Notes: generated by a model not told the origin, from the sequence alone. DNA of 14,413 nucleotides from a virus (IMGVR_UViG_2654587996_000008), one strand, 5' to 3'; shown: positions 659-14,413, counted from the first letter of the stretch. Translations and numbers: made by a program.

Positions 659-1126
659 TTATTTTACGATTCTGAAAGAAGGAATCTCAAGAAGAGGCAG
701 AAGCAGTGGTTTAATGCCCACGCGAGTAGATAACCCATAAACCTGCTCACGAACATATGGGTATATAATCAATGGAGCGTTAAAATCAGCCCAATGAGGG
801 ATATGCTTAACAGAGAATTCTTCAGTATCTACTGTAAAAACTCCTCCGACTTCAACCCATATAGAGACAGGTTGGTTCTCATACTCTTGGTTGTCAGCTT
901 CAGAATTATCCTCATCTACAGCAAATCTGCCAGCACGAACCCTCATACTTACATGTATAGTAGATGTTGCTTCATCAAAATCTGAATGGCCTGCTTCCAT
1001 AGCGTAGCTACCAGCTTGGTAGTCAGCCGAATGTGCAGTCTTAACGTCATGCACTTCAATACTCAGCTTCAAAACTTGCAACGAACGGAGTTGCACAGCA
1101 TGTGCTCGAAATGACTTATTTGACAT
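659..1126 (-). CDS. SecB-like chaperone
   Basis: 155 aa. C-terminal 'NAPLIIYPYVREQVYGLSTRVGIKPLLLPLL' matches the SecB signature segment (E. coli SecB '...[30 protein letters not shown]...'). Start overlaps the upstream stop as TAATG (translational coupling). Confidence 0.6.
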   Translation of the reverse strand: MSNKSFRAHAVQLRSLQVLKLSIEVHDVKTAHSADYQAGSYAMEAGHSDFDEATSTIHVSMRVRAGRFAVDEDNSEADNQEYENQPVSIWVEVGGVFTVDTEEFSVKHIPHWADFNAPLIIYPYVREQVYGLSTRVGIKPLLLPLLEIPSFRIVK

Positions 1127-1434
1127 TAGGCCGCCAGTGCAAATTCAGGTTCTGCTTCAACAGCTAAGACCGTGTCAGCGTTCAAGGATTTAGCAGCATT
1201 TAGCTTCACAGTAGCAAACAAAGTTACCAGTTCCTCTGTCATGACTTCTGAAAAGTGCAAAGACAAAGACTCCAGAGTATTTACATCAAAATCTTTGAAT
1301 TTTTCGCTTTTTTTCAGAAAAGAGGAAACATCCCCTTCTCTACATTCCCTGGCTTCTTTAAGGAACTCTTCAGGTGTTAAAGACAAGATGTCTTGTAACG
1401 CCGCGTCCAATGCAGCCTTCATTCTACGGTTCAT
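1126..1434 (-). CDS. Small acidic helical protein; putative antitoxin/adaptor of the operon
   Basis: 102 aa with SD 'GAGGGG' 8 nt upstream of the ATG. Starts 12 nt after the upstream gene and overlaps the downstream start. No recognisable DNA-binding motif; the C-terminal tail '...TVLAVEAEPEFALAA' is acidic/hydrophobic. Confidence 0.5.
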   Translation of the reverse strand: MNRRMKAALDAALQDILSLTPEEFLKEARECREGDVSSFLKKSEKFKDFDVNTLESLSLHFSEVMTEELVTLFATVKLNAAKSLNADTVLAVEAEPEFALAA

Positions 1435-1446
1435 AGTGGAACCCCT

Positions 1447-2052
1447 CTAATTTTTAGTTATAGCAAGATAATCCAGATTTCTAACTATCACAGCAAACGG
1501 CGCTCCAACATACCCAGCCAGTTGGTCTGGCATTTTATGTGGTTGCTGGACGGTGGCTAACACTACGCCAACTGATATGCATTTGGATTCTTCAGTTCGA
1601 TTGATGAGCATTTGATGCACTGCACAGATAAGGTCTTCTCTCTCATCAACATTCTGGGCATTTATAGTTGGCCAAAGACCATCAAGCGCTTTTCTTAAAG
1701 TTACTCTAAACTCGGGACTCTCAAGGTTTAAAACCTCTTCACCAGGTGCCTTGACGTACCCCCAAATTACAGCGCAACCTTTGTCAGCTTCGTCTGAATA
1801 TTCACCTCTTTTTTCAGCAGCAACAAACCAACTTTCTGCAAGTTGAGTTGCATATTGGCATCCTTTTTCAGCAGCATGCCAAAGATAAGCTCCCACACCA
1901 CGCCTACCACCGTCTCCAACTCTGAAACCATTCTCCAGAATTGATGCAGCCCTTGAGCAGCAAGTTCCATGGGAGCCATGTGCTTCGAAGAAGGTAGCTT
2001 CAACTGATTCATCATTAGCGGCTTGATCGGAAACTAAACTTAACATATTCAT
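1447..2052 (-). CDS. Putative ADP-ribosyltransferase-fold protein (PARP/diphtheria-toxin-like H-G-S/T motif)
   Basis: 201 aa. 'FFEAHGSHGTCCSRAASILENGFRVGDGGRRGVGAYLWHAAEKGCQYA' resembles the NAD-binding core of H-Y-E clade ARTs (PARP1 '[37 protein letters not shown]', diphtheria toxin 'YHGT'). Candidate catalytic acidic residues lie further downstream. The functional call is inference. Confidence 0.45.
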   Translation of the reverse strand: MNMLSLVSDQAANDESVEATFFEAHGSHGTCCSRAASILENGFRVGDGGRRGVGAYLWHAAEKGCQYATQLAESWFVAAEKRGEYSDEADKGCAVIWGYVKAPGEEVLNLESPEFRVTLRKALDGLWPTINAQNVDEREDLICAVHQMLINRTEESKCISVGVVLATVQQPHKMPDQLAGYVGAPFAVIVRNLDYLAITKN

Positions 2053-2609: not shown

Positions 2610-3137
2610 TCATTGATGGTCTGATTTTTCCCACTCAGCCAGGGCGTTTAACCCGGCTTCACTCCATGATTCCGGTTCATCGGGATAATCACCTGCAACA
2701 TAGCAGAGTTCGCAACGCAGCATACGAATTGCCAGCCTGGCATTACCTCGCAAATTGTATTTTTCAAAGTAATGCTGCCCTTCATCATCCTCAAGGCAGA
2801 TAGCACCATCATCAAGAAAGTGCACTTCCCAGCCTAATTCCCCGGCTGCATACAGCACACGCTGCTGTATGCCCTCGTCCGTTACTGGCGCAGGAATTTT
2901 ACCGTCTCTGGCCTTAACTGCTTTCCAGAACTCGCCCCATGTCATTTCCAGCGTTCTTTCTGGCCACATTTCAGAAATGGTGTCTTTCCCCTGTGCTGGT
3001 GGGCTGTTCCGCTGCTCTGTCGCTTCCACATCAATTTTTTTACCGGACATGACCACTTCGCCTTTCTCGAGCCAGTCGTAAACTGTCTGGCGGCTTACGC
3101 CTTTGTATTTGGCGTATTCGGCTTTACTCATCAACAT
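2610..3137 (-). CDS. Nu1-like winged-HTH DNA-binding protein (possible terminase-small-subunit-like / packaging-redirection protein)
   Basis: About 175 aa from the ATG at 3137 (SD 'GAGGTG' 7 nt upstream; the ORF track's earlier ATG at 3155 lacks an SD). N-terminus 'MSKAEYAKYKGVSRQTVYDWLEKGEVV' resembles lambda Nu1 'KKQLADIFGASIRTIQNWQEQGMPV'. The repeat array lies immediately 3'. Confidence 0.5.
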   Translation of the reverse strand: MLMSKAEYAKYKGVSRQTVYDWLEKGEVVMSGKKIDVEATEQRNSPPAQGKDTISEMWPERTLEMTWGEFWKAVKARDGKIPAPVTDEGIQQRVLYAAGELGWEVHFLDDGAICLEDDEGQHYFEKYNLRGNARLAIRMLRCELCYVAGDYPDEPESWSEAGLNALAEWEKSDHQ

Positions 3138-3236
3138 GTAGCTCACCTCATGCATATACGATAAAAAATAATTTCATGCGGAAAGGGAATGCGTTGTGGG
3201 TATGGAGGAAAGGGGCAATAACCGCCCCTTACTGAT

Positions 3237-3509
3237 TCAGTTGCGCCAGGATGGCTGGCTAAGCGTGGTTTTCATTACATCATTGACGACCTGTTTTACG
3301 ATTTCTGTGTTGGCAGTCGTGCTTTCAACATCAACAAAGCCATAATCGCCAATTTCCACCGTCAGGGATTCCAGTTTCTTCCCTAGAGCATCAGGCAACT
3401 CTCCACTGAACCGGTGCTGAAGATTTTCCACCAGCAACGCCCTGAATGCCTCGCTGTTCTCTTTTTTCTGCCATAGCTGGCGTTTATCCACTCTGATATT
3501 TAATTTCAC
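3237..3509 (-). CDS. Hypothetical protein (90 aa), coupled to the upstream RHH gene
   Basis: ATGA start/stop overlap with the upstream gene at 3506-3509. No recognised motif. Confidence 0.45.
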   Translation of the reverse strand: MKLNIRVDKRQLWQKKENSEAFRALLVENLQHRFSGELPDALGKKLESLTVEIGDYGFVDVESTTANTEIVKQVVNDVMKTTLSQPSWRN

Positions 3510-3673
3510 AGTCTCACCTCTTTAAGTGCCTTATCCATCAGTTGCCGAGCGATAACATGAATCGACGGTGCCACACCAAGCACAGATTTCTGACGCTCTT
3601 CGTCCTGGATGCGTTGCAGGGCTTCGATCTGCCTCCGGGAAAGTAAAACTGGCTTTACTCCGTGATTTTTCAT
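3506..3673 (-). CDS. Small ribbon-helix-helix-like DNA-binding protein (55 aa)
   Basis: ATG at 3673 with SD 'AAGGGA' 6 nt upstream. 'KPVLLSRRQIEALQRIQDEE...VLGVAPSIHVIARQLMDKAL' fits a beta-strand plus two helices. The longer 107-aa ORF-track form adds a Cys-rich N-terminus translated from AT-rich intergenic DNA and is rejected. Confidence 0.5.
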   Translation of the reverse strand: MKNHGVKPVLLSRRQIEALQRIQDEERQKSVLGVAPSIHVIARQLMDKALKEVRL

Positions 3674-3692
3674 GATGATCCCTTCTGAATGA

Positions 3693-3710
3693 CAATAATT
3701 GCAATTATTG
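3693..3710. promoter_or_regulatory. 18-bp perfect palindrome CAATAATTGCAATTATTG (putative operator)
   Basis: Lies 20-37 bp upstream of the RHH gene start. A related partial copy 'ACAATTGCAATAA' sits at 3734-3746. Confidence 0.45.
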
Positions 3711-3951
3711 CACAAATTGAAATGATACCAGAGACAATTGCAATAAATGAAACGAAAAGCATCAATAAACCAACCTTCGGCACTGAATGCTCTGATTTTT
3801 CTGCAAAGGTATGGCAGATGTTGGTGCATGCAAACATAAAGGCAATAGCAGAAGAAACAGCGGGGAGTGAAAAGGGGAAGTTTTTATAAATACACGATTG
3901 TCGCCTCACTGCAGGTTAACAGCCACAAGCTCCATGATAATAACTTGTTAA

Positions 3952-4275
3952 TTATTTCATCAGATTTTTCATTATTTGCGCGATTGAATACACAAGCAAA
4001 AACTCGGCAGCCGCAAGAGTATAAAAAACATAAATTCGCTTAGCCCACCGACGATGAAAGAACTCCTCAGCATGGCCGGATGTTCGAGATACAAGCCATG
4101 CACCTACTGCACACAGAGCAGGTGCAATGAGCACAGTTATAAACCAGATTGTGATGCCCATCCCATGCCTACTGATAATAGCCATTGGTATTGCAAAAAT
4201 GAATGTTAGAGCAGCATTAGCTAATAGAATATCTTTTAAAGTATTTTCAATTAGTTTTTCTAGATTATCTTTCAT
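3952..4275 (-). CDS. Small integral membrane protein (107 aa, 2-3 predicted TM helices)
   Basis: Hydrophobic stretches 'LLANAALTFIFAIPMAIISRHGMGITIWFITVLIAPALCAVGAWLV' and 'IYVFYTLAAAEFLLVYSIAQIM'. ATG at 4275 is preceded by a G-rich SD. Confidence 0.55.
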   Translation of the reverse strand: MKDNLEKLIENTLKDILLANAALTFIFAIPMAIISRHGMGITIWFITVLIAPALCAVGAWLVSRTSGHAEEFFHRRWAKRIYVFYTLAAAEFLLVYSIAQIMKNLMK

Positions 4276-4298
4276 CTAATCCCCCCCGTTGAACATTA

Positions 4299-4326
4299 AT
4301 ATATAAAAGCCCCTTACTAAGGGGCT
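4299..4326 (-). terminator. Intrinsic terminator after the lipoprotein gene
   Basis: 8-bp stem (4308-4315 'AGCCCCTT' pairing 4319-4326 'AAGGGGCT') with a 3-nt loop, followed on the minus strand by 'TTTATATATT'. It sits between the lipoprotein stop (4340) and the membrane-protein start (4275). Confidence 0.5.
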
Positions 4327-4339
4327 TTGCACGGATTGT

Positions 4340-5482
4340 TTAAAGGGAACTTTTTTTCGCCCCTTCAATTTCTGCCTGACAAATTTCGTCATTTGTAAAT
4401 GAGTACTGCAGATAGACATATCCCTGAGTGGAATTGTTCGCTCTGGCCTCAATAGATATAGTATCAATATTGTTTTTTAATGGTATTTCTTTTGTTCCCT
4501 TCCATGTGGCAGATAAGAAGCGTTCTTTTTTGTTTAGCCCCCTCATCCAGTCCTGAGGATCTTTCCAAATTGAACCAGCCAGCAAAAAGTCTGTAGTATC
4601 AGCCTTTCCATACAGAGAACTTAAAGAATTACTCAATTCTTCAAACTTGGATTTAAGAGCCAATCCATAGCTATCAGTATCAATATTTTTTCCTAAAGCC
4701 CGTATTTGACATAAACCAGCTTTCGGGGAGATCAACAAACCATACATTTCAAAATCTGCGTTTTGCTTCGGTAATTTATCAGAAGTATACAGATTCACAC
4801 TGTCTGGTAGTGGCTTGAGCTTAGCACCGATCATATCTTCGATGTTTTTCTGTGTAAGACCGGCTTCTAAGCCAAACGGACCATCCGCTGGCGGGAGTAA
4901 AGGAAGTTGCTCTTGGGAATTTTTGGCTGTTACTTCCGTTTCAGTACTGTTTTTTGCGTCATTATCTTGTACTGATGCCAGCTTAACTTCAGCGAGGCCA
5001 TACTTGGCTGTGAGGTACTTTTGCTGCAACATTGCCATGGTCTGCTCTTCAGTGGCAACAGTAGATAATTTTAGTACCTTTATCAGACCACCACTATACT
5101 GACGAGCATCAGCTTTGGCTTCGTTGATTTTTGCATCTAAGCTGTCAATTTCAGTTTTAATTGAAGCCGCAAGCTCAGGATCAGGTTTTACTCCAGATAC
5201 AACAACATCAATTTTGGCGCCTGATTCAATAGCATTAATACGCTGTTCCAAAAGCGCTTTATTAGTTCCTAATATTTCCAGTCTTGCTGTTGTCAGATTT
5301 TTTATCAACCCACCAGAAAACTGCTGGTCAACTTCCTTAGCTGCTGATATTTCACCTTCCGTTTGCGATAGTTCAGCTTTAAGAGCCGCTACTTCCTGTT
5401 TCTGTTCTGGAGTTAACTCTTCTGGCCCACATCCGGTTAACATTACTATACCGACTAATGTTGCAATTAAAGTTTTATTCAT
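4340..5482 (-). CDS. Lipoprotein (380 aa) with internal repeats
   Basis: Signal peptide and lipobox 'MNKTLIATLVGIVMLTGC'. Repeated 'Q[FY]SGGLIK' motif and coiled-coil-like central region. Function unknown. Confidence 0.65.
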   Translation of the reverse strand: MNKTLIATLVGIVMLTGCGPEELTPEQKQEVAALKAELSQTEGEISAAKEVDQQFSGGLIKNLTTARLEILGTNKALLEQRINAIESGAKIDVVVSGVKPDPELAASIKTEIDSLDAKINEAKADARQYSGGLIKVLKLSTVATEEQTMAMLQQKYLTAKYGLAEVKLASVQDNDAKNSTETEVTAKNSQEQLPLLPPADGPFGLEAGLTQKNIEDMIGAKLKPLPDSVNLYTSDKLPKQNADFEMYGLLISPKAGLCQIRALGKNIDTDSYGLALKSKFEELSNSLSSLYGKADTTDFLLAGSIWKDPQDWMRGLNKKERFLSATWKGTKEIPLKNNIDTISIEARANNSTQGYVYLQYSFTNDEICQAEIEGAKKSSL

Positions 5483-5616: not shown

Positions 5617-5904
5617 TTACTGACTACAATTGTTCTTTTTTTGGTATTTCCTGAATGCCTCACCATTGGGCTGATGTAATCCCATCCCGACATGTGCCCG
5701 GCAGATGGTTTTGCGCATCTCCCCGAAATTATCCTGCCTTGCTGGTGGGCGTGCTGCCTTGTGGATACATTCCGCGCGACGTTTTGCCGCCTGTTCCCGT
5801 GCCTTGTCATCATTCGCCAGCATGATGACCTCAGCCCACCGCGCCGCCGCTCTGCGGTACAGGCCACGCGCTTCCAGTGCTTCCGCTTTACTGTCCTGAA
5901 TCAT
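5617..5904 (-). CDS. PerC-family transcriptional regulator (Pch-like)
   Basis: 95 aa. 'KAEALEARGLYRRAAARWAEV' matches the conserved PerC/Pch N-terminal motif as I recall it. SD 'AGGAGG' upstream; ATGA overlap with the upstream stop. Confidence 0.65.
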   Translation of the reverse strand: MIQDSKAEALEARGLYRRAAARWAEVIMLANDDKAREQAAKRRAECIHKAARPPARQDNFGEMRKTICRAHVGMGLHQPNGEAFRKYQKKNNCSQ

Positions 5905-6479
5905 GCACCTGTTACCTCCTTTGCTGCCCGGCGCTGACGTTTGCGCTTCTCATTCAGCGCCACCAGCCGCGTTTCTGCCTCCTGCTGTTCCTGTGGTGTC
6001 ACTTCCCCACATGGCTGGCCTTTCAGGTCGTAGCGTACCCCACCAGCCATTAAGGCGCGGTAATAGCGCGGACACTGCGCATAAGATGCCAGCGTCGCAC
6101 GTAATGCCCCTGGCCCGAATGCCAGCCCCCTGACGGCGAGGTTCTGCATCAGGTCGTCGAATATCCCCACCTTAAGCGGCTTCGGTGCTTCCCGGCTGAA
6201 TAAGTCAGGCCACAACTCAGTAAGGCGGTTAACGCGCCTGCGGTTTTTTCGCTGCCGTTTGGTCATATGCCGCCACGGTGTCGCCCCTGTGGGCTTTTGC
6301 TGCGCTTTCTGGTTACCGGGCATCACTTTATGTGCCGATGTGGTTTTATCCTGCTCCTGCGTCGCCTGCGTCGTTTTCTGCGGCGTGCCGTAAATGCCTT
6401 TCGGTTTTCTGTTAATGGTCAGCTTAGTCATGCTTTGCCCCATCGTTTTTACTGGTTGTTTCATATCCGGTACTTTCAT
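5901..6479 (-). CDS. ProQ/FinO-domain RNA-binding protein
   Basis: 192 aa. 'KPLKVGIFDDL...LRATLASYAQCPRYYRALMAGGVRYDLKGQPCGEVT' parallels E. coli ProQ 'RPLKIGIFQDL...[36 protein letters not shown]', preceded by a basic Lys/Arg/Gln-rich N-terminus. The exact start is uncertain among several in-frame ATGs. Confidence 0.65.
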   Translation of the reverse strand: MKVPDMKQPVKTMGQSMTKLTINRKPKGIYGTPQKTTQATQEQDKTTSAHKVMPGNQKAQQKPTGATPWRHMTKRQRKNRRRVNRLTELWPDLFSREAPKPLKVGIFDDLMQNLAVRGLAFGPGALRATLASYAQCPRYYRALMAGGVRYDLKGQPCGEVTPQEQQEAETRLVALNEKRKRQRRAAKEVTGA

Positions 6480-6787: not shown

Positions 6788-8536
6788 TTATAAAAATTCC
6801 TCGGTTCTCTCCGTTTGTATAACGTTGGTTTGTATTCGTCCTTTAAAACCTCTTGTCAGGTATTCAGCCCCATATTCTCTTGCTGCTGACTTCATGGCCT
6901 TACCAAAATCACCGACACTTAATATTTCTTCTTCCCCCATATACTCCATAAAGGCGAGATATAGTCTGTACAGGCTTGTACGCGGATTAAGATCAGTTAA
7001 TCTCTTACCGCCTCCCATCATCATCCCATGCGGTTCATCAAGAAATGCAAGCGCCGCACATAACCCAATGACAGGATCAGTTTCCTGTTTTATTTTCAGA
7101 GCTTCGGCACCGTCGCGCTGCTCCAACAATAATTCCCGTGCTTTTTCTGGATCGGAAAAGTTAGCCAGTAATCGACGAATAATGACAGGTATTTCCGCCG
7201 CTATCTTTTGCGGTAACTCTTTATCCTTTTCGGTCTCCCTTACAATATTATCGAACCGAAAAATTACACGTCGACGCGCAACGCCTCCGGCCCGTTCGGT
7301 GAATGTCATCGGCACGTTATTTGTTGCCAGCACGACGGACCTGATAATTGTTGTGAAACGCTTTTCATATTTCGGGTTAATTTCAACTGGATCTCCACCC
7401 GTTATTTTTTTGATGCCGGATCCTTCACCTGTATATTTCGGCTGGTCTGCCAGGACAATAAGACGACTTCCGACAACCTGCGCACGCCCGCCAGCATCAT
7501 CAAGTGATGTCATTTCAGCGCTTACCGTGTTCTGTTTCCCTGCCAGAAGGGTGGCTATGTGCGTGATTGTGCTCTTGCCGCTCCCACCTTCCCCTGTGGC
7601 CTCAATAAACATCTGCCAGTCGTACCGGTTCGCCATAATCATGTACAGCGCGGCGCATATACGCATCATCTTTCGCGGGTCTTTTCCTGCGGCGTGATCA
7701 AGCCATTTATGAAAGTTTGGCGCGTTGTCGCGGATGTTCTCCCCTGGTACTGGTGGCGTGTACTCAATGCCGTTATGCGTGGTGATCCAGTTATCCGGCG
7801 AGTGCGGGGAAAATTCGCCAGTTTTCATGTCAAGCACGCCATTAGAGAACGGCAATAAATCACCTGACGGCTCCCCCATTGGCCTGGCCATAACTTTTAA
7901 AGCATCCACTGTATTACTTATTGCTCTCCGACTAAATGATGTTCCGTTTTCTTCGTAAATAGCCACCATTTCACGACTAAGATCCAGTGTGCTTACCGGA
8001 ACCCAAAAATCATCGCGCCAGACGTGAACAACCTCACTCTCCTGATTCATTGCTACATCCTGAAATCGTTCAGCTAAAAGTTTTGCCCTTTGGCTGTCCG
8101 CCATTCTGGAAAGAGATATTTTGTGTTTTTTCTCGGTCCTTCCTGACAGAATTTCTCCGCGCTCAGCCTGTCCGCGGATCCGTTGCAAGTAGTCGCGCCA
8201 GTTCTCCGGCTCCCGGTCGGTGATACCTTTGTATAATTTCGCCTCCTGTACGCCAGCCAGCGCCAGCTTTTCAGCGATAGCATTGATCTGGATTGGTTCG
8301 ATCTCTCCCGCGAGATAGACACGCGCAAAGCGGCGTTTCTCGTCAATAATGCGGATATTCGCCAGGTCTGCCAGTTGCTTTGGCCCCAGGTAAACAGGTG
8401 GTACGTTATCGCCGTGTTTTCGTCCTTCGCTTTCAATCCAGTGTTGAGCATGGGAGTAAGCGTCCGCCCCGGCAAAAATGATTACCTCTGTGAATTTATC
8501 CTTCGGCTGATATTTTAAATTCGGTGCGTTTTTCAC
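6788..8536 (-). CDS. P4-family primase/helicase (D5-like, Walker A P-loop)
   Basis: 582 aa with Walker A 'GEGGSGKST' and a phage/plasmid primase C-terminal-type region. GTG start at 8536 with SD 'GGAGG' 7 nt upstream; GTGA overlap with the upstream ORF. Confidence 0.85.
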   Translation of the reverse strand: MKNAPNLKYQPKDKFTEVIIFAGADAYSHAQHWIESEGRKHGDNVPPVYLGPKQLADLANIRIIDEKRRFARVYLAGEIEPIQINAIAEKLALAGVQEAKLYKGITDREPENWRDYLQRIRGQAERGEILSGRTEKKHKISLSRMADSQRAKLLAERFQDVAMNQESEVVHVWRDDFWVPVSTLDLSREMVAIYEENGTSFSRRAISNTVDALKVMARPMGEPSGDLLPFSNGVLDMKTGEFSPHSPDNWITTHNGIEYTPPVPGENIRDNAPNFHKWLDHAAGKDPRKMMRICAALYMIMANRYDWQMFIEATGEGGSGKSTITHIATLLAGKQNTVSAEMTSLDDAGGRAQVVGSRLIVLADQPKYTGEGSGIKKITGGDPVEINPKYEKRFTTIIRSVVLATNNVPMTFTERAGGVARRRVIFRFDNIVRETEKDKELPQKIAAEIPVIIRRLLANFSDPEKARELLLEQRDGAEALKIKQETDPVIGLCAALAFLDEPHGMMMGGGKRLTDLNPRTSLYRLYLAFMEYMGEEEILSVGDFGKAMKSAAREYGAEYLTRGFKGRIQTNVIQTERTEEFL

Positions 8537-9254: not shown

Positions 9255-9612
9255 GTTTACCCCCCTGAATGACCTGATAACCGCAACTGGTCAGCAATTC
9301 GATAAATTCCGGCAATGTGCCGAAACAGTAATCATCACGCAGACGTTCGCGGGATACTTCAACGCCGTTTTCGTAGTGACTCACCATACACCCGGTAAAA
9401 CGCAGATCATCATCGTGATGGCACGTTGACGGCTTAATCAGTCGCGCACGCTCCGCCAGTTCCAGCAATGCTTCAACGCTTCCGGCAATTGCACCATCCG
9501 GCAGGTGATAATTACTTACTACGCGTCCATTCTCTACATTGACCAGTAGCTGCCCGGTAAATTTCTCATCAAACTGAATGCTGTTAAGGTCAGAAATAGA
9601 CGAATTATGCAT
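9247..9612 (-). CDS. Hypothetical protein (121 aa)
   Basis: ATG at 9612 is preceded by a perfect 'AGGAGG' 6 nt upstream; the ORF-track ATG at 9630 is rejected. ATGCATAA overlap with the upstream ORF. Confidence 0.5.
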   Translation of the reverse strand: MHNSSISDLNSIQFDEKFTGQLLVNVENGRVVSNYHLPDGAIAGSVEALLELAERARLIKPSTCHHDDDLRFTGCMVSHYENGVEVSRERLRDDYCFGTLPEFIELLTSCGYQVIQGGKHA

Positions 9613-12002: not shown

Positions 12003-12200
12003 TCAGGTAGCTGTTCCGCGTGATTCCGCAATACGCTGATTAATCCACTCGTCAATTTCACTCTCAACGAAAGCAATCGCTCGCGAGCCAATTTTTACAG
12101 GTTTAGGAAAACGCCCTTGGGCAATGAGTTTATAGATCCATGCCCTTCCATACCCTGTACGGCGCATGGTTTCTGGCATACGAATTAAAGATTGTGACAT
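12003..12200 (-). CDS. alpA: AlpA-family transcriptional regulator / excisionase-like protein
   Basis: About 65 aa from the ATG at 12200 (SD 'GGGAGA' upstream). 'IRMPETMRRTGYGRAWIYKLIAQGRFPKPVKIGSRAIAFVESEIDEWINQR' is the AlpA-type HTH signature. The ORF-track N-terminal extension is rejected. Confidence 0.75.
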   Translation of the reverse strand: MSQSLIRMPETMRRTGYGRAWIYKLIAQGRFPKPVKIGSRAIAFVESEIDEWINQRIAESRGTAT

Positions 12201-12266
12201 GATAATCGTCTCCCGTTGTTTATTGATGCCTACGGGAGACATTGAAGCAGGTAAGACATTGGATAT

Positions 12267-12303
12267 CACCGCAATTGCGGTGAATGATACCGCAATTGCG
12301 GTA
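12267..12303. promoter_or_regulatory. Tandem 16-bp perfect palindromes CACCGCAATTGCGGTG and TACCGCAATTGCGGTA (operator-like)
   Basis: At 12267-12282 and 12288-12303, centres 21 bp apart, between the 251-aa gene stop (12315) and the alpA start (12200). Confidence 0.55.
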
Positions 12304-12314
12304 TAGGACTACAA

Positions 12315-13070: not shown

Positions 13071-13198
13071 TCTGTGCTACCTCGCACCCTCTGTAAAAGT
13101 GGCTGTGCCAGCCCGCAGAGGTGTACGGGTTTTCAGGAGCGACCCTAGACACAGCCTTTTCTTAATCGCTCAAAGTCTACTACTGTATACTCAACCAG

Positions 13199-14413
13199 TC
13201 ACCCGCATTTTCCGAACTCACCATGCACCACATTTCCGCCATGCTCGAGCGAATCCATATAGTCGGCATACCACTGGAGCATCTCCCGGCGACCATCCAG
13301 ATATTGCGCATGGTTGTATGTGCCACGAATTGAGTTTTTATCGACGTGTGCAAGCTGTGTCTCTATCCACGCGGTGTTATAGCCCTGCTCATGCAAAATG
13401 GTGCTCATGGTGTGCCGGAATCCATGACCAGTAACCTTTCCGTTATAGCCGATGCGTTTAAATACTTGGTTTATGCTAGCCTCGCTCATTGTTTTCCTTG
13501 GATCATTACGGCCGGGAAACATAAGCGGATAATTGCCAGTTAATTCTTTAATCTGCCCAATAAGCGAAAGAGCCTGCTCAGACAAAGGCACCACATGAGG
13601 GCGACGCATTTTCATCCGTGAAGCAGGTATCTCCCAGATAGCCTTGTTGAGATCGATTTCATCCCATAATGCACCGCGCAGTTCGCCAGTCCGCAAACCG
13701 GTGATAATCAGTAGACGAGCCGCCATAACAACCAATGCACTTCCTGAGTAACTGGACAATGCCTTGAAAAAATCAGGTAATTCTTTGGCTGTGAGGAAAG
13801 GATAATGACTAGATTCATGACCTTGCATCGCGCTGGTGAGATCCGGTGCAGGGTTATACTCAGCACGTCCAGTGACAATTGCATAGCGGAAAACTTCCCC
13901 GCATCGCTGCCTCACTTTTTTGGCTTTTTCGGTAGCACCGCGCCCCTCGATGCGCCGCAGCACATTCAGCAGTTCAAGTGGTTTGATTTCGGCGATTGGT
14001 TTTTTGCCAATGTAAGGGAACACATCTTTGTTGAAGGCTTCGAGGATGTCTGAAGCATAACCAGCAGACCATTTTTTTAATTTGCTGCTGTGCCACTCAA
14101 TGGCAATATCTTTGAAGGTGTTGTTTAACTGCGTTTCCCGGGCAATCTTTTCCTCTCGTTTCGCTTCCATCGGATCGATACCCCCAGCGATACTCCTTTT
14201 AGCTTCTTCACGTTTTGCACGAGCATCAGCCAAGGTAACTTCAGGATACACACCTAGTGCTAACAGCTTCTCTTTACCAGCTACACGATACTTGAAGCGC
14301 CAATATTTTCCTCCACTAGGTTTTACCAAGAGATACAGACCACCACCATCAGCCAGCTTGTAAGCCTTCTCTTTTGGCTTGGCAGTGTCTATTTGACGGG
14401 CATTGAGTTTCAC
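13199..14413 (-). CDS. int: P4-type tyrosine integrase (site-specific recombinase)
   Basis: 404 aa. N-terminus 'KLNARQIDTAKPKEKAYKLADGGGLYLLVKPSGGKYWRFKYR' is typical of P4/CP4-57-type integrases; C-terminus has 'HGFRHT' and 'RGTYNHA' (catalytic Tyr region). Apparent GTG start sits exactly at the window edge, so the N-terminus may be slightly truncated. Confidence 0.9.
   Translation of the reverse strand: MKLNARQIDTAKPKEKAYKLADGGGLYLLVKPSGGKYWRFKYRVAGKEKLLALGVYPEVTLADARAKREEAKRSIAGGIDPMEAKREEKIARETQLNNTFKDIAIEWHSSKLKKWSAGYASDILEAFNKDVFPYIGKKPIAEIKPLELLNVLRRIEGRGATEKAKKVRQRCGEVFRYAIVTGRAEYNPAPDLTSAMQGHESSHYPFLTAKELPDFFKALSSYSGSALVVMAARLLIITGLRTGELRGALWDEIDLNKAIWEIPASRMKMRRPHVVPLSEQALSLIGQIKELTGNYPLMFPGRNDPRKTMSEASINQVFKRIGYNGKVTGHGFRHTMSTILHEQGYNTAWIETQLAHVDKNSIRGTYNHAQYLDGRREMLQWYADYMDSLEHGGNVVHGEFGKCG

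Follow-up and report, generated by a model that had tools for sequence, protein, structure and literature searches.

A small ribbon-helix-helix-like gene with a conserved, operator-like leader at the head of the distal operon of a PICI-type phage satellite

The stretch of DNA analysed here, called the window throughout, comprises 14,413 nucleotides, and its gene content was read from ORFs, domain searches (Pfam, NCBIfam, PHROGs) and PGAP annotation. All of its genes lie on the minus strand. Because genes for an integrase, AlpA, AntA, a primase-helicase, ProQ and PerC were found, the window is identified as a Gram-negative PICI-type phage satellite. Its co-oriented genes run from int via alpA and primase/replication functions to a distal packaging and accessory region over about 10-15 kb, which is the layout of Gram-negative PICIs and the same as that described for E. 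coli PICIs (PMC6092414). The landmarks, found by ORF and domain searches and, in the case of the RNA motif, with Rfam, are as follows.

13199-14413, minus strand: integrase gene
13087-13155, minus strand: int-alpA RNA motif RF02996 (49.8 bits; gathering score 35.8)
12003-12269, minus strand: alpA
after alpA and before the primase-helicase gene in gene order, minus strand: antA
6788-8536, minus strand: primase-helicase gene
5901-6479, minus strand: ProQ/FinO gene
5617-5904, minus strand: PerC gene

The RNA motif is placed between the integrase gene and a gene for a 251-aa protein. Past the PerC gene, the order continues with a lipoprotein gene, a gene for a 107-aa membrane protein and the two small genes that are the subject of this study, beyond which lie a gene for a 181-aa TerS-like HTH protein, cargo genes and an IS3 fragment. 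The gene for the lipoprotein (380 aa), an intrinsic terminator (4306-4328) and the 107-aa membrane-protein gene occupy positions 3952-5482 on the minus strand. Islands of the ABU 83972 type are devoid of this block and have the leader of the small genes directly after the PerC gene; the block looks like an inserted accessory module. The cargo at 659-2052 (minus strand) consists of three genes for proteins of 201 aa, 102 aa and 155 aa, the last of which is SecB-like and matches PADLOC PD-T4-9_C (E 2e-9) as well as Pfam SecB (2.5e-5). The cluster resembles a defence system of the PD-T4-9 type or a toxin-antitoxin-chaperone system. It sits at the island's variable end, where other E. coli island copies carry different cargo, such as DUF4747 and an AlbA_2/Schlafen-like protein.

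The features of the region under study are listed here in the direction of transcription.

3737-3752, minus strand: box A, TTTCATTTATTGCAAT, 30 nt upstream of box B
3736-3746: partial copy related to the palindrome, AATTGCAATAA (repeat search, family D1)
3707-3722, minus strand: box B, TTTCAATTTGTGCAAT, a dyad TTTCA-N5-TGCAA located 49 nt upstream of the RHH gene's ATG
3693-3710, either strand: 18-bp perfect palindrome CAATAATTGCAATTATTG, ending 6 nt upstream of the SD sequence
3506-3673, minus strand: gene for the 55-aa RHH protein, with ATG at 3673, TGA at 3506-3508 and the SD sequence AGAAGGG at 3680-3686
3237-3509, minus strand: gene for a 90-aa ORFan protein, with a GTG start overlapping the RHH gene's stop codon (GTGA) and the SD sequence GAGGTGA at 3514-3520
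2610-3155, minus strand: gene of the same operon, further downstream, for a 181-aa HTH protein (175 aa by the PGAP start) with a TerS-like N-terminus

PGAP labels the products of the 55-aa and 90-aa ORFs as hypothetical proteins. An earlier note on this DNA had pointed out both ORFs, the perfect palindrome, a related partial copy near 3734-3746 and an AT-rich upstream region. All of these are present, the last in relative terms, the upstream stretch being fairly AT-rich with a GC content of 0.375-0.40 versus about 0.46-0.48 for the flanking genes. The note had also stated that the two genes are coupled by an ATGA overlap. The genes do overlap, but their junction reads GTGA, with a GTG start and a TGA stop; the ATGA that was meant is probably the one formed by the RHH gene's start and the stop of a 79-aa ORF dealt with further below. 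The 1.2-kb region is present in 131 of 5,426 complete E. coli genomes, and the RHH gene and its leader occur, at lower identity, in about 164 of them. No homologue of either the 55-aa or the 90-aa protein was found in 50,697 phage genomes.

Searches with the 55-aa protein gave no family match in Pfam, NCBIfam, PHROGs or PADLOC, no match in the PDB by phmmer and profile searches, and none with Foldseek. A sequence-profile match to the RHH (MetJ/Arc/CopG) superfamily was likewise not obtained, and hhalign comparisons with CopG (E 0.27) and Arc (E 0.45) were not significant. An AF2 model based on the homologue alignment (pLDDT 80) has an extended N-terminus followed by helices at residues 13-29 and 38-54. 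The protein shows the beta-alpha-alpha domain of about 45 residues, an N-terminal beta-strand plus two helices, that characterizes the RHH superfamily. The domain takes up all 55 residues, helix 2 ending at residue 54 of the model, and the inter-helix loop, at 8 residues, exceeds that of classical RHH proteins in length. Judged by this fold comparison, the protein probably adopts a ribbon-helix-helix fold. The earlier description as 'RHH-like' is thus backed by fold comparison and finds no counterpart in the Pfam, NCBIfam, PHROGs and PDB sequence searches. The 29 homologous proteins come exclusively from Enterobacterales and have retained the motif V-K-P-V-L-L-S, a first helix QIEAL..IQ.EER, the loop S.LGVAPS and a second helix IHVIARQLMDKAL.

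Relatives of the locus were gathered by exact-protein look-up, by a pattern scan covering one genome per species, and from E. coli genomes. The leader is immediately followed by the RHH gene in about 27 chromosomal relatives, which belong to Escherichia, Citrobacter, Serratia, Pantoea, Erwinia, Rouxiella, Rahnella, Lonsdalea, Leclercia and Symbiopectobacterium, and in nine IMG/VR contigs. In most relatives, an intrinsic terminator directly precedes the leader, which is about 110 nt long and alignable across genera. In the cross-genus alignment, the row for L012 is disregarded because of wrong coordinates. Its best-conserved parts are boxes of the form TTTCA-N5-TGCAA(T), imperfect dyads in which the reverse complement of TTTCA approximates TGCAA. 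In the window, boxes A and B form the core of a 19-nt direct repeat (3707-3725 and 3737-3755; repeat family D5), and the box motif has only these two matches in the entire 14.4 kb, both of them in the leader. Box B is found at -47 to -49 in nearly all relatives, extending to -58 in those loci that diverge most. Box A occurs at -77 to -79, and up to -88, in relatives from E. coli, Citrobacter, Serratia, Lonsdalea, Leclercia and Rahnella. The background expectation for loose box matches is 0.26 per 140 nt. Comparison of the window with its 95.5%-identical relative L026 revealed changes in none of the 46 motif bases and in 6 of the 76 other leader bases (p = 0.054). The TTGCAAT-containing repeats lie in this conserved, non-coding leader, as would be expected of an operator region. 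With regard to an RNA element, no Rfam family was detected in the leader, the best match having an E value of 0.96.

Box B adjoins a -10 hexamer, TATAAT or CATAAT, in the relatives, and in E. coli STEC005 (L023) the promoter scan returned TCGTCA-16-CATAAT with box B occupying the spacer. The -35 hexamers of the relatives (TTAATC, TCGTCA) are weak. No sigma-70 consensus promoter was detected in the window itself, and inspection of the hexamers by hand gave weak candidates only. The family alignment has AATTGC in the window at the position of the relatives' TATAAT. Since a sigma-70 consensus went undetected and AATTGC stands in for TATAAT, repression at the promoter is less secure for the window than for its relatives. 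Transcription in the window lineage could depend on an activator or on read-through from the gene for the 107-aa protein.

The same replacement underlies the palindrome. When aligned at equal lengths, the window reads AATTGCAATTATTGTCATTCAG versus TATAATCACTGTATATTTATCAG in the relatives, so that the canonical -10 hexamer and the segment next to it are replaced in the window lineage. The replacement adds two half-sites, TGCAA and TGTCA, in 9-nt phasing, and these create the perfect 18-bp palindrome between box B and the SD sequence. The resulting array is TTTCA-N5-TGCAA-N4-TGCAA-N4-TGTCA, and the palindrome may be parsed into two additional dyads of the box type that overlap one another, GTGCA-N5-TGCAA and TTGCA-N5-TGTCA. 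Within the 14.4 kb, the octamer ATTGCAAT has just two occurrences, at 3698 and 3737. Set against chance, the palindrome is unusual to a modest degree only: when the entire window is shuffled by dinucleotides, a perfect palindrome of at least 18 bp arises in 4.6% of cases, and shuffling of positions 3600-4400 gives one in 30 of 5000 cases (0.6%). It is carried by the group of more than 95% identity, i.e., the window, L008 (E. ruysiae) and L026. Three relatives with the same RHH and 90-aa genes (L022, L024 and L025) lack it and have GTGCAATTGTTGTGGTTGTTATTATTCGGGAG instead, even though their RHH proteins are about 98% identical to that of the window, at a DNA identity of 87-90%. It is also missing from all other lineages and genera compared. 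By this distribution, the 18-bp palindrome is specific to the window's E. coli lineage and not family-wide.

Two of the window's three longest perfect palindromes, the third being the one at 3693, are found elsewhere. They are also 18 bp long, lie immediately upstream of alpA at 12266-12283 (TCACCGCAATTGCGGTGA) and 12287-12304 (ATACCGCAATTGCGGTAT), 21 nt apart, and have the 14-mer ACCGCAATTGCGGT in common. They likely constitute an operator pair for control of alpA, whose product activates its own promoter (PMC6092414). The proposal that a GCAATTGC core links the RHH leader to these elements proved wrong. This sequence is present at 9485, 12271 and 12292, and the alpA elements contain ACCGCAATTGCGGT twice; what they share with the site at 3693-3710 is the pentamer GCAAT/ATTGC alone. 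An operator common to alpA and the RHH leader was rejected, as GCAATTGC is found nowhere in 3506-3950.

The leader is overlapped by two further ORFs.

3670-3909, minus strand: hydrophobic ORF of 79 aa whose stop overlaps the RHH gene's ATG (ATGA)
3689-3889, plus strand: ORF of 66 aa, annotated by PGAP as a hypothetical protein (WP_024189479.1)

If one of these were a real gene for a small membrane protein, the palindrome within it could be a mere by-product of coding. Both frames are indeed open and both read Ile-Ile-Ala-Ile-Ile (IIAII) across the palindrome; the 79-aa ORF contains a pair of hydrophobic segments and joins the RHH gene by ATGA, the 66-aa ORF is annotated, and a 39-nt leader deletion in E. 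coli N921, described below, keeps the frame. However, the last 80 nt at the 3' end of the region, corresponding to the 3' third of the 79-aa ORF, align with leaders of other lineages that are non-coding and follow terminators. Translated in this frame, the lineage nearest to that of the window yields an unrelated Cys-rich string that lacks a start codon, and neither ORF is present or conserved outside the window lineage. Versus L026, synonymous and non-synonymous changes number two and five for the 79-aa ORF and one and six for the 66-aa ORF, compared to four and one for the 90-aa gene. Given the homology to non-coding leaders, the absence of peptide conservation and the pattern of substitutions, the 79-aa ORF is probably not a gene and the 66-aa ORF probably spurious, an over-call by PGAP. 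We therefore regard an origin of the palindrome in coding as very improbable.

The 90-aa ORF, by comparison, is a real gene, as indicated by 67% identity between the E. coli and Serratia proteins, a good SD sequence and purifying selection. Its product is an extreme ORFan with nine matches among 5.8 billion clusters. A profile search with the family against 1.84 billion representatives gave seven matches and linked it to no known family, and the protein had no match in Pfam, NCBIfam, PHROGs, PADLOC or PDB sequence searches. A relationship to DinI is a weak lead only: the protein does not match the Pfam DinI profile, and hhalign against a DinI sequence was not significant. We also considered that the protein might be a remote homologue of the 108-aa protein that replaces it in most relatives; this was rejected, as hhalign found the two unrelated. 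In nearly all loci, the gene after the RHH gene overlaps the RHH gene's stop codon, and the identity of this gene varies among the following.

90-aa family: E. coli, E. ruysiae, Serratia
108-aa family, with a tape-measure-domain protein of 850-1140 aa after it: Pantoea, Erwinia, Winslowiella and others
191-aa HExxH protein: Rouxiella
364-373-aa protein: Rahnella and a Serratia MAG
192-197-aa protein, followed by DUF2213 and by a lytic-transglycosylase protein: Citrobacter and E. coli STEC005
no coupled gene: IMG/VR contig L042

Several of these genes resemble those for virion or morphogenesis proteins. Farther downstream, a TerS-like HTH protein is usual, either of the family encoded at 2610-3155 or a DUF5681 protein. 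Homologues of the former follow the RHH gene in L002, L004, L008, L009 and L042. The 181-aa protein of the window matches Pfam HTH_17 (2.5e-4) and PHROG 57, terminase small subunit (2.2e-6). With a variable gene in the slot and a TerS-like HTH gene recurring downstream, the RHH gene heads the distal (late) operon of the satellite, composed of the variable slot and a packaging-type protein. Going by its position, the 90-aa protein is most likely a helper-specific interference factor or a packaging accessory factor. At 2569-2584, about 25 nt past the stop codon of the gene for the TerS-like HTH protein, lies a perfect palindrome of 16 bp, CTGGCAAGCTTGCCAG, which may act as the stem of a terminator, in protein binding or in packaging.

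The variability of the slot bears on the suggestion of the earlier note that the two small genes form an antitoxin-toxin-like cassette. In such a type II arrangement, the RHH protein would be an antitoxin that neutralizes a 90-aa toxin and autoregulates via the palindrome. The locus resembles one in that a small RHH gene comes first, its stop overlaps the next start and a palindrome lies upstream, and the far end of the island carries defence-like cargo (the PD-T4-9_C match). The fold is also that of the N-terminal DNA-binding domain of the RHH antitoxins RelB, ParD, TacA and MazE6 and of the RHH domain of HicB. These antitoxins, unlike the protein studied here, have a C-terminal segment for neutralization; the 55 residues make up the DNA-binding domain alone and leave no extension for toxin binding. 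Furthermore, members of the RHH family are followed by any of at least six unrelated genes, or by no coupled gene, and no conserved adjacent toxin gene accompanies them, the neighbour belonging to families F10, F4, F18 or F20, being a 197-aa protein, or missing; F10 and F4 are unrelated according to hhalign. The 90-aa partner itself bears no toxin signature, with no toxin or defence match in Pfam, NCBIfam or PADLOC. Finally, E. coli N921 (L028) carries a nonsense allele of the RHH gene (Q20*), which PGAP did not annotate, next to an intact 90-aa gene. This last argument is weakened by a deletion in the leader of the same strain: the loss of 39 nt between two ATTGCAATT repeats has taken away box B and one half of the palindrome, and the operon may be silent as a result. 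Both changes fall in the equivalent of window positions 3506-3760. Taken together, the toxin-antitoxin reading is highly unlikely. As for the broader description as an autoregulated two-gene cassette, the operator-like leader is conserved, but the coupled gene varies and the RHH gene heads a longer operon, usually with a TerS-like HTH gene at its end.

We consider it somewhat more probable than otherwise (a probability of roughly 0.55) that the RHH protein regulates its own operon, the late operon of the satellite, and that boxes A and B and the palindrome are the operators involved. RHH dimers would bind TGCAA-type half-sites phased about 10 bp apart. Box B would occupy the -35/spacer region of the promoter, with box A three helical turns upstream, and we infer that binding would repress the operon's own promoter. 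The downstream genes, namely the variable gene for helper interference or morphogenesis (here the 90-aa ORFan) and the gene for the TerS-like HTH packaging protein, would thereby stay low until the island is induced. An RHH operon autoregulated like those of Arc and CopG would be expected to have repeated half-sites that overlap its own promoter; here, the conserved dyad boxes at -48 and -78 adjoin the -10 hexamer in the relatives, and the window, in which no promoter was detected, adds the palindrome. Covariation between the RHH beta-strand residues and the box sequence was not seen.

Autoregulation by the first gene of an operon, through operators in its own promoter, is the commonest arrangement among small RHH proteins such as Arc, Mnt, CopG and omega. 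Like P22 Arc and Mnt, pMV158 CopG and pSM19035 omega, the protein described here is a minimal RHH domain (about 45-55 aa), is encoded first in the operon that it putatively controls, and is associated with short, repeated candidate half-sites that are about one helical turn apart and would overlap the core promoter. It differs from these four in its longer inter-helix loop and in the candidate operator sequence TTTCA-N5-TGCAA, which is unrelated to theirs, and from Arc and CopG in the lack of sequence similarity detectable with hhalign and of a Pfam RHH match.

As the main alternative, the boxes and the palindrome might be read by another protein, i.e., PerC, AlpA, a late activator of the helper phage, LexA or a host regulator, and the RHH protein might act elsewhere, for instance at a satellite packaging site, at promoters of the helper phage or together with the TerS-like HTH protein as its partner. 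PerC-family genes are located just upstream in most relatives, and the weak -35 hexamers suggest a need for an activator. The constant pair in the operon, moreover, is the RHH gene and the TerS-like HTH gene. On the other hand, boxes and RHH gene are present in Serratia L002 where a PerC gene is absent, the box motif occurs nowhere else in the window, so that no other RHH target is visible, and the general prevalence of first-gene autoregulation among small RHH proteins also speaks against this alternative. We regard it as possible but rather unlikely.

Some leaders contain a further element, which implies that other regulators act on them. A LexA-box-like sequence, CTGT-N8-ACAG, lies between the -10 hexamer and the SD sequence of the RHH gene in L002 (5808-5823), L015, L017, L032 and L048, about 30 nt upstream of the RHH gene's ATG in L015 and L017. 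It reads CTGTATGAACATACAG in Serratia and CTGTATAAAATAACAG in Lonsdalea and Pantoea. Rouxiella and Symbiopectobacterium have a version with one mismatch (ACAT), and in many Pantoea and Erwinia loci it is one base shorter, CTGTATATTTATCAG. The window is free of such a box. These sequences suggest that the late operon of some satellites receives an SOS input, as in SaPI operon I, which, in work attributed to Ubeda and colleagues (2007), is reportedly the LexA-controlled packaging and interference operon of the staphylococcal PICIs. Both are satellite operons with a TerS-like gene, interference or morphogenesis genes and a promoter and operator of their own, and the LexA-like sequence at the promoter is a likeness confined to some of the relatives. 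The differences are the host clade, the proteins and, for the window, the missing LexA-like box; an RHH gene in first position is not known from SaPI operon I.

Within E. coli, the closest parallel considered is the Rpp module of EcCICFT073 (PMC6739421), a distal PICI module with a wHTH/TerS-like protein that possibly redirects packaging. An RHH gene is not described for this module in that paper. The 181-aa protein was examined as a candidate Rpp and rejected, because it matches no PDB chain at E values up to 1, a search in which the solved RppC chain would have been expected to appear.

A small autoregulating RHH protein is in itself ordinary biology, and the gene described here adds a new, unannotated member to a familiar class of regulators, within an element that also belongs to a known class. 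The PICI literature searched contains no mention of an RHH gene, and a paper on helper-embedded satellites mentions neither PerC nor RHH. A bolder reading, which we hold only tentatively and consider doubtful, is that the family represents a previously unrecognized, satellite-specific master regulator of the late operon of Enterobacterales PICIs. For Gram-negative PICIs, AlpA is an activator and the repressor has been called 'unclear' (PMC6092414); if the reading is correct, the RHH protein would provide this repressor-type control. The leader would join the RHH boxes to inputs from the helper or, via the LexA-like boxes of several genera, from the SOS response. The RHH gene with its leader would further be a fixed entry point at which helper-specific interference genes are swapped, among them those for the 90-aa ORFan and for tape-measure-like and internal-virion-like proteins. 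If the favoured reading as an autoregulator is right, the locus would be a conserved, hitherto unannotated control point that times the genes by which Gram-negative phage satellites hijack helper-phage packaging, and the RHH gene with its leader could be used to find the variable helper-interference slot in PICI-like islands.
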